From the NCBI GenBank assembly GCA_016207035.1, contig JACQQJ010000140.1, forward strand, positions 1 through 16,351: a stretch of 16,351 nucleotides of DNA. Reading direction: 5' to 3'. The notes under the pieces are model-generated. The model ran no database searches and was not told the origin of the DNA. It was given only the letters and a program-made list of their open reading frames with translations. A program made the position numbers and the translations under genes. Source of the DNA: Nitrospinota bacterium. Its GTDB lineage: Bacteria > Nitrospinota > Nitrospinia > UBA9942. The first letter of the stretch is position 1. Each line of letters starts with the position of its first letter. Shown here one piece after another: positions 207 to 6,945 of this stretch.

Positions 207-1619
207 TTAAATATCAAAATAGAGGGCAAATTCATATGGATGGGGTCTTAGCCTCATCTGATTCACCTCTTTATCCCTTTTATATTCAAGCCACATATCA
301 ATGGCATCCTGGGTAAAGACATCACCTTTTAGCAGAAAGTCCGGATCCTTTTCTAATGCCTCAAGGGAATCTTCCAGTGAACCAGGAAGGGATGGGACAT
401 TTTTCAACTCTTCAGGTCCAAGTGCATATATATCCTTATCCAGAGGCTCACCTGGGTCAATCTTATTCTGTATACCATCAAGACCTGCCATGAGCATTGC
501 TGCAAATGCAAGATAACCATTACAGGATGGATCAGGGAATCTGACCTCAACCCTCTTCGCCTTCGGGCTTGGTGAATACATCGGCACCCTGACACTTGCA
601 CTCCTGTTTCTGCTTGAATATGCGAGATTGACAGGTGCCTCAAATCCCGGAACTAATCTTTTGTATGAATTGGTTGTAGGTGCTACGATAGCTGCAAGGG
701 CATGGGCATGTTTGAGTATACCACCAACATAGTATAGTGCCAGTTCACTTAAGCCCCCGTAAGAATTTCCTGCAAATAATGGTTTTCCTCCCTTCCATAG
801 GCTCTGATGGGTATGCATACCTGAGCCATTATCGTTCCATATAGGCTTCGGCATGAATGTAACAGTCTTATTATTCCTCCTTGCCACATTTTTACAGATA
901 TATTTATACCACATCAGATTATCAGCACATTTTGTAAGAGGTGCAAACCTCATATCTATCTCGCACTGACCTGCGGTGGCAACCTCATGATGCTGACATT
1001 CAATTGGTATCCCAACCCCCATCATGGTTAATACCATCTCCGTCCTTATATCCATGAGGCTGTCAGTAGGTGGTACTGGGAAATACCCTTCCTTATACCT
1101 TGGTTTATAGCCGAGATTTGGGTTCTCCTCTTTACCTGAGTTCCATTTCCCCTCTTTAGAATCAATAAAGTAATAGCTGCACTGCTCTTTAGAATCATAT
1201 CTTATGTCATCAAATATAAAAAACTCTGCTTCAGGTCCCATATAAGATGTATCTGCTATTCCTGTGGACTTAAGATATGCCTCAGACTTCTGGGCAATGT
1301 ATCTCGGGTCCCTGCTGTATCTCTCCTTTGTTATTGGGTCGACCACATTGGATATCATGCTCAGGGTAGGCTCCTTTGTAAATGGGTCCATAACTGCTGT
1401 AGCCGGGTCAGGAATGAGGAGCATATCACTGGCATGTATAGGCTGCCATCCCCTGATTGATGAACCGTCAAATCCAAATCCATCTTCAAATGAGCTTTCT
1501 TCCAATTCTGTCATTGGAAAAGAGGTATGCTGCCACATTCCTGGAAAATCCATAAACTTTAAATCAAGAATCTTAGCCTTATTCTTTTTTGCAAAATCTA
1601 AAACCTCTTTCGGTGTCAT
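207..1619 (-). CDS. glnA: Glutamine synthetase type I (GSI-beta; adenylylation-loop Tyr appears conserved)
   Basis: The 470-aa ORF has typical GSI motifs ([17 protein letters not shown]). The segment [11 protein letters not shown] resembles the E. coli adenylylation loop DKNLYDLPPEE. An RBS GGGAGGA sits 5 nt upstream of the ATG. Confidence 0.95.
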
Positions 1620-1636
1620 AAATCCTCCCTAAAATT

Positions 1637-1674
1637 AACTTTCAACTTTTAACTTTTAACTTTCAACTTTTTTT
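1637..1674. repeat. Tandem heptamer repeat (AACTTTY)x5 abutting the glnA SD
   Basis: The units are aactttc aactttt aactttt aactttc aacttttttt. On the minus strand this is (AAAGTTR)n, immediately 5' of the glnA RBS. Confidence 0.7.
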
Positions 1675-1732
1675 ATATATCACCCCCTTTAAAAATTCAA
1701 ATTTGGGATTTAACTTTAAGGAAAGAGTATTG

Positions 1733-1747
1733 AAGAGAAATTCTCTT
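1733..1747. promoter_or_regulatory. 7-1-7 palindrome AAGAGAA-A-TTCTCTT in the glnA upstream region (candidate operator)
   Basis: This is a perfect inverted repeat about 115 nt upstream of the glnA ATG, inside a 408-bp intergenic region. Confidence 0.3.
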
Positions 1748-1943
1748 TTAAAGGGCTTTTAATGAATCTTTGAAGTAAAGGGTAATGGTAATGCTATCCC
1801 TAATTATCAACTCTCCCCTATTCCCACCAGAGCTGTTATCCCTTTACTCATGCAGCAAGACATTTAAATGAGAGTGAGGGATCATCTCCTTATCCATCAG
1901 AAAAATATTTGACAACCAAAAATGTTTATGTAAATAATATCAC

Positions 1944-2018
1944 AAGGGCAAGTCAGTTCAAAGGCAGAAGTGGTGGTTTAGGGGAACTGCTTCAACCTTT
2001 TTGTCCTGACTTGCCCTT
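1944..2018 (-). terminator. Long-range 13-bp inverted repeat between amt1 stop and glnA leader (possible terminator or attenuator)
   Basis: The arm aagggcaagtcag (1944-1956) pairs with ctgacttgccctt (2006-2018). On the minus strand the distal arm is followed by cattttt. It starts 9 nt after the amt1 stop. Confidence 0.3.
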
Positions 2019-2027
2019 TTAAATATA

Positions 2028-5520: not shown

Positions 5521-5554
5521 TTTTTCACCTCCCTTTTAATTAACCCATCCTTAA

Positions 5555-5581
5555 TCCTCCCCTTAATGTAAGGGGACGGAG
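5555..5581 (-). other. Stem-loop (cccctta-atg-taagggg, extended by tcc/gga) between the OMP and glnK genes
   Basis: A perfect 7-bp GC-rich stem with a 3-nt loop. No T-run follows. Candidate processing or stability or regulatory element. Confidence 0.4.
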
Positions 5582-5590
5582 GAGGTGGGA

Positions 5591-6718
5591 TTAAAAATAG
5601 AAGAACACATTGACTGCCACCGTATCCTGTTCTTTTACATCTGCAGTCTTTTCTTTTTTATCAAATACAGGCTTATCAGATACATCATGACGATATTCAG
5701 GTCTTATAACGAGATACTTCTTTATAGCAAACTCAGGTGTAACCGTAATCTCCCACATATCCTGTTTTGTCAATGTCCTCGCACCATCATCATCCTTAAA
5801 TATCTCTCCCCTGAGATTGAGAGAAATCATATCATTTGCAACATATCTGATATAACCTGCAAGTCCTGACCATTTGCTATCACTATTCGGGCTCGATACA
5901 TTATTAGGATCCTTCTGTTCACTCCCATAGACATAGTCAAAAGCAAGGGTAAGACGCTCCAATAAAGTAAATGACAGATTTGCATCAAAGAGGCTTCTCA
6001 TATTGCTATCGTTGTTGGTCTGTTCTGGTCCCCACATGTATTTAATATTCAGCATAGTGTTTGGTATAGGTGTCAATGCCAGATGTGTGCAAATGGTCTT
6101 CCCCCTGTTATTATCCACTACATTGTCCCATCCATTTAAGACTTCTGCTGTTAGAGAAGCCATATCATTGAATTTATACACCCCTCTTAATCCGGTATGT
6201 GTGAATGGAATGGAATAGAAAAATAGAAGAGAGCGAGAGTAGTTGTAATTCCATGCATCGTATCCCTCAATTACCTCTGCCCCCATCTCTGTGATGTATT
6301 TTCCTAAATCAAGGGCAAGTCCAGTCCCTACAGGTAATACATATCGCACATAAGCCTGTTGGATATCAAAATCATCATCAGCAGCCTGTGTTACACCGGG
6401 CCAGGAAGAGCGTATAGCTTTAGGGATTGTATACCCATACATGATATCTGTCCTATAGCCAATATCCCCTGGCTCTATAGCCTCCTTTTGAAAAACCAGC
6501 TCTGCAACATCTACATTAAAACTATTTGCATTCTCATTAAAGGGTCTAAAATTTATCTTTCTTGAATCGGGGTCATTAAAATTATAGTTATATGCTGTCG
6601 AGACAAACCCATTTACCTTAATATCCTTTAAAAGATCTCCTGCATCTACAGCATAAGAAATGCTGCAAAATGAAATAACTAAAACAAAAGCTACTGTGAA
6701 AATTTTTAAACCTTTCAT
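5591..6718 (-). CDS. Outer-membrane beta-barrel (porin-like) protein encoded with glnK-amt
   Basis: A signal peptide MKGLKIFTVAFVLVISFCSISYA is present. Composition is beta-rich with alternating aromatics. The C-terminus ...VNVFFYF is a typical OMP signature. The start is set at 6718 (RBS AGGAGGG); the ORF track gives the alternative 6742. Confidence 0.7.
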   Translation of the reverse strand: MKGLKIFTVAFVLVISFCSISYAVDAGDLLKDIKVNGFVSTAYNYNFNDPDSRKINFRPFNENANSFNVDVAELVFQKEAIEPGDIGYRTDIMYGYTIPKAIRSSWPGVTQAADDDFDIQQAYVRYVLPVGTGLALDLGKYITEMGAEVIEGYDAWNYNYSRSLLFFYSIPFTHTGLRGVYKFNDMASLTAEVLNGWDNVVDNNRGKTICTHLALTPIPNTMLNIKYMWGPEQTNNDSNMRSLFDANLSFTLLERLTLAFDYVYGSEQKDPNNVSSPNSDSKWSGLAGYIRYVANDMISLNLRGEIFKDDDGARTLTKQDMWEITVTPEFAIKKYLVIRPEYRHDVSDKPVFDKKEKTADVKEQDTVAVNVFFYF

Positions 6719-6734
6719 TAATTTTACCCTCCTT

Positions 6735-6914
6735 TTAATCAACTAAGTTTTTAAGCCTCTTTATTTTGTCTATTACAACCTTTGATTTTGGCAGACTATC
6801 CCCCCTTTCCCATCTGGAGACTGTGGTTACTGTGACGCCAATCCTTCTTGCAAATTCATCCTGCGTCATTCCCAAGCTCTCCCTTATATTTTTTATTTCT
6901 TCTCTTTTGAACAT
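6735..6914 (-). CDS. XRE-family helix-turn-helix transcriptional regulator (small, about 59 aa)
   Basis: HTH_3 motif MTQDEFARRIGVTVTTVSRWERG. The ORF track extends to 6941, but a sigma-54-like promoter overlaps those codons, so the start is set at MFKREE (6914). Confidence 0.65.
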   Translation of the reverse strand: MFKREEIKNIRESLGMTQDEFARRIGVTVTTVSRWERGDSLPKSKVVIDKIKRLKNLVD

Positions 6915-6929
6915 CTGTATATACATGTG

Positions 6930-6945
6930 AGCAAAGGGCATGCCA
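6930..6945 (-). promoter_or_regulatory. Sigma-54 (-24/-12) promoter TGGCAT-N5-TTGCT heading the XRE-OMP-glnK-amt-amt(-glnA) gene string
   Basis: The minus strand reads TGGCATgccctTTGCT, with GG and GC at the canonical spacing. An ATG lies 16 nt downstream of the -12 element, implying a very short leader or a leaderless transcript. Confidence 0.5.

Follow-up and report, generated by a model that had tools for sequence, protein, structure and literature searches.

A stretch of 16,351 nt, a contig piece from a metagenome-assembled genome (MAG) of a groundwater bacterium of the Nitrospinae/Nitrospinota (the whole stretch is referred to here as the window), carries on its minus strand a putative nitrogen-limitation operon in which a gene for an outer-membrane porin of the BBP2 family lies between a gene for a small helix-turn-helix (HTH) protein and the genes for the PII signal protein GlnK and the ammonium transporter Amt. 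We think it probable, with considerable reserve, that this porin raises the permeability of the outer membrane to NH4+ and other small monovalent cations for Amt. Relatives of the porin adjoin amt and/or glnK in at least 8 phyla and in some cases lie in or beside operons for the Kdp K+ pump, and the window copy stands downstream of a conserved sigma-54 promoter.

RESULTS

Linkage of the Porin to amt and glnK

A genome scan yielded 80 loci with relatives of the porin (37–76% identity), and linkage was scored where amt and/or glnK lay within 600 nt on the same strand. One or both of these genes adjoin the porin in 58 of the 80 loci; the remainder comprise 3 in which amt or glnK is found within 5 kb, 7 that are truncated, and 12 that have full flanks and neither gene. 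An independent metagenome scan, seeded like the first on conserved loop motifs of the porin, gave the pairing in 38 of 80 loci, mostly on short contigs, or in about 28 of the 44 with enough flanking sequence, as counted by eye. The base rate at which a random gene adjoins amt or glnK is, by our own estimate, well below 1%. The median gap between the porin and its partner is estimated to be 87 nt, and three loci with called genes and precomputed Pfam hits show the same pairing: one has the order BBP2-Amt-PII-Amt-NirB, and in two Amt and BBP2 are separated by 11 and 3 nt, respectively.

The taxa of the genome loci include Nitrospinota (including Nitrospinaceae), "Deltaproteobacteria" MAGs, Nitrospirota/Thermodesulfovibrio, Gemmatimonadota, Myxococcota, Thermodesulfobacteriota (one labelled Thermodesulfatator), Acidobacteriota (Thermoanaerobaculia and Holophagales), Aminicenantes, Eisenbacteria, and Planctomycetota; the pairing spans at least 8 phyla. 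The gene order differs between clades and includes porin-glnK-amt, porin-amt-glnK-amt, amt-porin, amt-glnK-porin, and porin-glnK-glnA; because it varies in this way, the pattern points to selection on the linkage rather than to simple inheritance and argues for the linkage having been repeatedly selected. A preliminary description of the window, made from its sequence, had called for a check on whether the synteny of porin, glnK, and amt is conserved across taxa, and such conservation was found, in several orders. The possibility that it named as refuting its reading, a generic porin occurring at random genomic positions, is rejected by the 58 genome and 38 metagenome loci in which the porin adjoins amt or glnK.

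In one locus on a 3-Mb contig (L161, positions 4461–12891), the genes are, in order, an ANTAR response regulator, a GATase, BBP2, Amt, PII, Amt, and a NirB-type nitrite reductase. A GATase-like gene as in this locus also lies directly before the porin in "Delta" loci L012–L014, L018, and L020, with a sigma-54 motif between the two genes.

The Locus and the Extent of the Operon

All long open reading frames (ORFs) of the window are on the minus strand, to which the coordinates below refer unless stated otherwise. Read 5' to 3' from 6945 to 3, the order is sigma-54 promoter, XRE-type HTH gene, BBP2 porin, glnK, amt1, amt2, glnA, and tRNA-Pro. The content and order of the seven co-directional genes given in the preliminary description are therefore retained, with the strand now specified as minus and several starts corrected; a single transcript carrying all seven is improbable. 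By tblastn, P-II, porin, and glnA are each represented once in the window and amt three times, and the single PII noted earlier is thus confirmed with a scope limited to the 16-kb contig.

The XRE/HTH_3 protein is encoded in an ORF at 6735–6941 (Pfam E 6e-14 on the full ORF), of which 6735–6914, encoding 59 residues, is the likely gene. The porin gene (5591–6718, 375 residues, PF07642) has its ATG at 6718 behind AAGGAGGG and its stop at 5591, and a protein search identified its product as NCBI entry MBI4378686.1. The glnK gene (5182–5520, 112 residues, P-II E 5e-36) is directly upstream of amt1, and its product contains Tyr51 of the T-loop, the tyrosine that is the site of uridylylation; the score of 173.7 bits against NF008111 is below the equivalog cut-off of 202, and the PII subtype has therefore been left unassigned. 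The ORF of amt1 extends from 3702 to 5192, with a likely start at an ATG at about 5114 behind GGGAGGG (PF00909, E 4.5e-128), and is followed by amt2 (2028–3443; PF00909, E 3e-125), the type I glutamine synthetase (GSI) gene glnA (207–1619; TIGR00653, 669 bits), and tRNA-Pro(TGG) (3–80).

The XRE and porin genes are separated by 16 nt, porin and glnK by 70 nt, and glnK and amt1 by 67 nt or less, followed by 258 nt between amt1 and amt2 and 408 nt between amt2 and glnA. The short gaps behind a shared sigma-54 promoter agree with the earlier view that the porin is co-operonic with glnK-amt, and XRE, porin, glnK, and amt1, perhaps together with amt2, would form one operon and be co-transcribed. 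A strong hairpin after amt2 (1944–2018; −36.5 kcal/mol, z −5.76) has a 13-bp perfect outer stem, and none of 200 shuffled sequences was equally stable; it is probably a terminator or processing site that marks the end of the operon. A sigma-54-like motif was sought upstream of amt2 and glnA in the window, and none was found. Because of the hairpin and the lack of such a motif before glnA, this gene is probably a separate transcription unit. Intergenic hairpins that might mask the ribosome-binding sites of glnK and amt were no more stable than shuffled sequences (z −1.6, −1.3, and −1.1), and an Rfam search of the window and five loci identified tRNAs only, with no known riboswitch or leader in the porin operon.

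Promoter and Upstream Elements

The sigma-54 (−24/−12) promoter, TGGCATGCCCTTTGCT (6930–6945), is an exact match to TGGCAY-N5-TTGCW, the only one within the window. The promoter in the preliminary description is thus confirmed as to type, but its location is upstream of the XRE gene and not directly before the porin. Farther upstream are two TGC-N11-GCA dyads, TGCTATAAAATCAGGCA (7086–7102) and TGCTTCAATATAGGGCA (7054–7070), with centres 32 bp apart and both about 110–160 bp upstream of the −24 element, which are candidate sites for an NtrC-type enhancer-binding protein. Between these and the promoter is an IHF-like site, AATCAACAGGTTG (6983–6995), which fits the IHF consensus, WATCAANNNNTTR. 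In an alignment of the window with the four closest orthologous loci (L002–L005), both dyads are conserved in half-sites and spacing, as are the IHF-like site, with an invariant core AAATCAA, the −24/−12 element, and the first codons of the HTH gene. The predicted layout is that of a classical NtrC-type activated sigma-54 promoter.

The same elements recur at other porin loci. In a strict scan of the 350 nt preceding each porin, in which a sigma-54 motif had to retain GG and GC and to match at no fewer than 10 of 11 positions, the motif was detected before 37 of 80 porins, as compared with about 0.025 expected per upstream interval, an approximately 18-fold excess over background. TGC-N11-GCA dyads are enriched upstream of these sigma-54 motifs, with 13 sites in 36 intervals versus about 1.5 expected; in the whole window there are five such dyads, and three of these precede the two motifs of the sigma-54 type by no more than about 160 nt.

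The interval from the IHF-like site to the −24 element contains a short tandem repeat (6951–6982) in which the plus-strand unit CCGTTTAAA occurs 3.6 times, and a second repeat stretch is at about 7010–7045. Repeat stretches are present at the same positions in L002–L005, amid the invariant regulatory elements, and their units are genome-specific (CTGACCA, CTTACAA, CGACTCT, TCAATCT, CGTAAAT, CAACACT, and GGTTTAA-like). Heptanucleotide tandem repeats (3–7 copies) are common on the contig, both between genes and at their starts (1637–1670, 8459–8506, 9425–9451, 10715–10741, 10761–10794, and 11378–11441). Some fall within the 5' end of an ORF for a Hao-like cytochrome and there specify the repeated peptide SQKSEVRSQK; repeats of this kind seem to be characteristic of the whole genome in this lineage.

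Family and Predicted Fold of the Porin

The porin matches PF07642 (BBP2, or OmpL-like putative beta-barrel porin-2) with an E of 1.9e-77 and 261.2 bits against a cut-off of 26.2, and the match is nearly full-length, residues 41–383 of the 383-residue ORF aligning with positions 2–339 of the 339 in the profile. By eye, the sequence begins with a Sec signal peptide, MKGLKIFTVAFVLVISFCSISYA/VD (...SISYA/VD), and terminates in ...VNVFFYF, an aromatic beta-signal; the presence of an outer-membrane beta-barrel protein with a C-terminal FFYF upstream of glnK-amt, as noted earlier, is borne out by the family match together with these features. On clustering at 50% identity, the BBP2 family comprises 7517 clusters at E ≤1e-3 and 1721 at E ≤1e-30.

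Structure prediction, which the preliminary description had called for, gave an AlphaFold monomer model (from a 24-sequence alignment) that is a 16-strand barrel with a pLDDT of 74.6 and a pTM of 0.72. A 30-residue loop between strands 5 and 6 (residues 143–172; pLDDT <50 in parts) has a location like that of L3 and may be of the constriction type. Conservation within the clade is strongest in this loop and the next turn, in the motifs GAEVIEG..NYSRS.LF..IPFTHTG and NGWDN..DNN. The closest solved fold is that of the ion-specific porin OprP; a sequence-profile search of solved structures gave no match to the porin even at E ≤1. Of the conserved charged residues, 10 in the predicted lumen are acidic and 7 basic, and the corresponding counts for the L3-like loop are 3 and 1, but it should be noted that the lumen charges were assigned by strand alternation and not from coordinates and are too weak a guide to decide selectivity.

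Linkage to kdp and the Question of Selectivity

Seven porin relatives, which are about 40% identical and have the same conserved loop motifs, are located in or beside operons for the Kdp K+ pump. The porin is within such an operon in L046 (4095–13755; kdpABC-orf-porin-kdpDE) and L093 (kdpD-porin-kdpABC) and precedes kdp genes in L072 (4721–13129; porin-kdpABCD), L097 (porin-kdpAB), and L043 (216–2458; porin, then a kdpD-like gene). In L069 (8167–19097), a sigma-54 activator, the porin, and a histidine kinase are followed by kdpABCD, and in L035 (5192–14421; amt-glnK-porin-kdpABCD) the porin stands between amt-glnK and kdpA. The L046 porin is nested among amt-linked porins of Nitrospirota and has identical loop motifs.

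NH4+ and K+ are nearly equal in size. The linkage to both amt and kdp would be accounted for most simply if the porin passed small monovalent cations, and it suggests that the porin may be a channel of this type (NH4+/K+) located beside the particular high-affinity inner-membrane system that scarcity induces in each case. A selectivity for small monovalent cations appears more likely than one for ammonium only. The ammonium-specific channel envisaged in the preliminary description is not established, given the 7 relatives in kdp operons and a charge pattern such as an ordinary porin with mild cation selectivity would show.

The Small HTH Gene Ahead of the Porin

The 59-residue form of the XRE protein matches HTH_3 with an E of 4e-14 and 52.7 bits (cut-off 23). 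Its start, the ATG at 6914, was picked from conservation across orthologues, which are 75–81% identical in L001–L005; with this start, its mRNA would be almost leaderless. In the Nitrospirota clade, the sigma-54 motif is about 280–310 nt upstream of the porin, and the space is filled by a small stand-alone gene, about 60–300 nt upstream of the porin, for a Fis-type HTH_8 protein of about 60–80 residues that carries ...AARKLGITERMIGYKIKKYG... (loci L032, L033, L037, L039, L040, L042, L048, L050, L051, L053, L060–L062, L065, L066, L073, and L075). The HTH_8 proteins of Nitrospirota and the HTH_3 proteins of the window clade are of unrelated types and yet occupy the same slot between promoter and porin. 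The presence of non-homologous mini-regulators in one slot suggests that both answer the same requirement, for example feedback control of the operon, and the XRE-type protein is probably an autoregulator.

The amt Paralogues and a Second Nitrogen-type Operon

The three amt genes of the window are 43–50% identical in pairwise comparisons, amt1 being 49–50% identical to amt2 and amt3. The second, amt2, is orthologous to the single amt located after glnK in L002 and L005 (83–85% identical), as amt3 is to the upstream amt of L002–L004 (86–89%). The first, amt1, is an extra paralogue without a close orthologue in the nearest relatives, where its best match is just 55–59% identical. A recent tandem duplication giving rise to amt1 and amt2 is rejected on the basis of their 49% identity and because amt2, not amt1, matches the single amt of relatives.

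The third amt reported previously at 11441–12790 is present, with a probable start at 12754, and is the first gene of a separate operon. The three copies had been taken as a sign of an ammonium-centred lifestyle, which is not supported, because multiple amt genes are common in relatives: close relatives have two in the corresponding region, and some Nitrospirota loci have three together with 2–3 glnK in about 10 kb.

The second nitrogen-type operon (7180–12897) contains five co-directional genes, for Amt3, a NapC/NirT-type cytochrome (3 CxxCH), an octahaem Hao-like cytochrome (8 CxxCH), a protein with an FGE-sulfatase domain, and an SPFH/Band-7 protein, with gaps of 87, −16, −4, and 57 nt. Before amt3 are a sigma-54-like motif, CGGCATGTATTTTGCT (12819–12804), and, farther upstream, a perfect palindrome, TGCCTAATTATTAGGCA (12897–12881), which is a TGC-N11-GCA dyad. 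Genes for Amt3 and the SPFH protein have corresponding positions in L002 and L003, and amt3 also in L004. The gene content suggests a nitrogen-regulated system in which periplasmic reduction of nitrite or hydroxylamine to ammonium might be coupled to uptake by Amt. Upstream of the nitrogen genes is a cbb3-like oxidase cluster (13148–16318) with genes for a dihaem cytochrome c (PF13442), a COX1-family subunit, a FixO-like subunit, and a small FixS-like membrane protein.

DISCUSSION

The arrangement in the window can be accommodated in a mechanism in which, under nitrogen limitation, an NtrC-type enhancer-binding protein bound to the two upstream dyads would activate the sigma-54 promoter with the aid of DNA bending by IHF. 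The resulting transcript would encode the XRE-type protein, the 16-stranded BBP2 porin, GlnK, and one or two Amt channels. When ammonium is scarce, the porin would raise the permeability of the outer membrane to NH4+, and probably to small monovalent cations generally, including K+, so that entry into the periplasm by diffusion would no longer limit the high-affinity Amt of the inner membrane; when nitrogen returns, GlnK would shut Amt again.

Several observations weigh against this mechanism. NH3 and NH4+ can pass general porins, and the need for a dedicated channel is an assumption. The 12 fully flanked genome loci without amt or glnK have neighbours that include genes for a sugar transferase, iPGM, MatE, and radical SAM proteins, and one MAG holds both linked and unlinked copies of the porin (L019 and L022). 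The presence of the loop motifs in all loci is partly an effect of ascertainment, since both scans were seeded on those motifs, and the L3-like loop itself is modelled with low confidence. The mixed conserved charges resemble, in the model, those of an ordinary, mildly cation-selective, OmpF-like porin. Finally, none of the genes for an enhancer-binding protein, rpoN, or ntrB is on the 16-kb contig.

One alternative is that the porin is an ordinary non-specific diffusion porin that has come under nitrogen control and raises permeability for many small nitrogen compounds or nutrients, with no selectivity for ammonium or cations. The conserved acidic loop opposite basic residues of the barrel resembles that of general porins, unlinked relatives exist, and nitrogen-induced porins for a broad range of substrates or for amines are known, such as OmpU in SAR11 (PMC3870248) and BCAL3473 in Burkholderia (PMC10117139). 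The partners, however, are specific: they are Amt/GlnK and Kdp, which handle ions of nearly the same size, and not transporters of amino acids, urea, or nitrate, and the gaps to amt are very short or overlapping in several phyla. We therefore regard a general porin as unlikely, while giving it appreciable weight.

It is improbable that the channel serves another nitrogen substrate (urea, nitrite, hydroxylamine, or small amines) and has come to lie near amt through the clustering of nitrogen-scavenging genes. There are genes for Hao-like and NapC/NirT cytochromes in the window and for a NirB-like reductase in L161, and an outer-membrane porin has been associated with urea uptake in comammox Nitrospira (PMC6311188), but amt/glnK is the constant neighbour across phyla, whereas other nitrogen genes are variable or absent, and the linkage to kdp would be left unexplained. 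That linkage might instead indicate that the porin is primarily a channel for K+ or for alkali cations in general, its association with nitrogen genes reflecting K+/glutamate homeostasis. Relatives are found in or next to kdpABC(D) at 7 loci, including the one between amt-glnK and kdpA, but linkage to amt/glnK is found at about 96 of 160 loci as compared with 7 for kdp, and the window copy is with glnK under a sigma-54 promoter of the nitrogen type; the probability of a channel primarily for K+ appears very small. A channel for NH4+ and small monovalent cations acting with Amt is the interpretation that we prefer.

Among characterized systems, the closest parallel is with OprP and OprO, the phosphate and pyrophosphate porins of the Pho regulon of Pseudomonas aeruginosa, which are likewise 16-stranded and embody the concept proposed for the window porin, being ion-directed, induced by scarcity of the ion, and suppliers of a high-affinity inner-membrane system. 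By analogy, the pairing of the porin with Amt may be viewed as parallel to that of OprP with Pst. OprP differs in having only 17% identity with the window porin, in belonging to a different Pfam family, and in being anion-specific by virtue of an arginine ladder, whereas the conserved loop of the window porin is acidic; also, the window porin, unlike OprP/OprO, would be co-operonic with an inner-membrane channel and a PII regulator. The canonical glnK-amtB operon of Enterobacteria and many other bacteria similarly has a glnK-amt pair, a T-loop tyrosine, a sigma-54 promoter, dyads with NtrC-type spacing, and an IHF-like site, but the window operon opens with genes for a small HTH protein and a porin, has a second amt, and has its activator off the contig. 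BCAL3473 of Burkholderia cenocepacia is also an outer-membrane porin; it is induced by nitrogen depletion and aids nitrogen nutrition, but it is an amine porin with no described link to amt, and its regulators are a small RNA and a protein of the LysR type (PMC10117139).

Two precedents involve ammonium more directly. In a transcriptome study of Kuenenia stuttgartiensis, ammonium limitation led to strong up-regulation of KSMBR1_3177, a porin with the same Pfam domain, BBP2, as the window porin; in the authors' proposal KSMBR1_3177 permits a higher influx of ammonium, and the passage on it describes no linkage to amt (PMC7438415). When the Planctomycetota relative L057 was used as a query, no protein named as from Kuenenia was among the best 120 matches. 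In Methylotuvimicrobium buryatense 5GB1C, deletion of PorA (EQU24_19165) reduced total ammonia uptake and slowed growth at 0.2 mM NH4+, and the authors stated that no ammonium-specific porin had been characterized before (bioRxiv 10.1101/2025.01.28.635327). PorA has 16 strands and, with 402 residues, a size similar to that of the window porin; the text of the paper gives no family and does not mention amtB, glnK, or Pfam (bioRxiv 10.1101/2025.01.28.635327). In the literature searched on BBP2 porins, porins of kdp operons, and ammonium-specific porins, only the Kuenenia and methanotroph precedents were found, with no characterization of a BBP2 porin and no description of linkage between a porin, amt, and glnK. 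The view that such a channel is a rarely characterized element of ammonium uptake is therefore fair (PMC7438415; 10.1101/2025.01.28.635327).

Judged from its genomic context, the porin is a putative nitrogen-regulated, operon-linked, phylogenetically widespread, and little-studied partner of Amt and GlnK. A broader proposal, which we advance tentatively and with somewhat more doubt than conviction, is that this clade of BBP2 is a widespread, dedicated outer-membrane channel for NH4+ and K+, the missing partner of Amt and Kdp in at least 8 phyla that lack general porins of the enterobacterial type, and that its expression would respond to the scarcity signals that induce these systems, with the small HTH protein as a feedback element. 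Cultured hosts of the arrangement probably exist.

In the textbook view, ammonium uptake begins at the inner membrane with Amt and GlnK, and the preceding passage through the outer membrane is taken to lack specificity. The tie of one porin clade to amt and glnK in many phyla would make the entry of ammonium through the outer membrane a regulated and selected step in environmental bacteria that include nitrite oxidizers (Nitrospinaceae), sulfate reducers (Thermodesulfovibrio), soil Acidobacteria, and Gemmatimonadota. The large "putative porin" family BBP2 would thereby gain a functional hypothesis, and the repeated association with kdp may point to one outer-membrane pore shared by NH4+ and K+.

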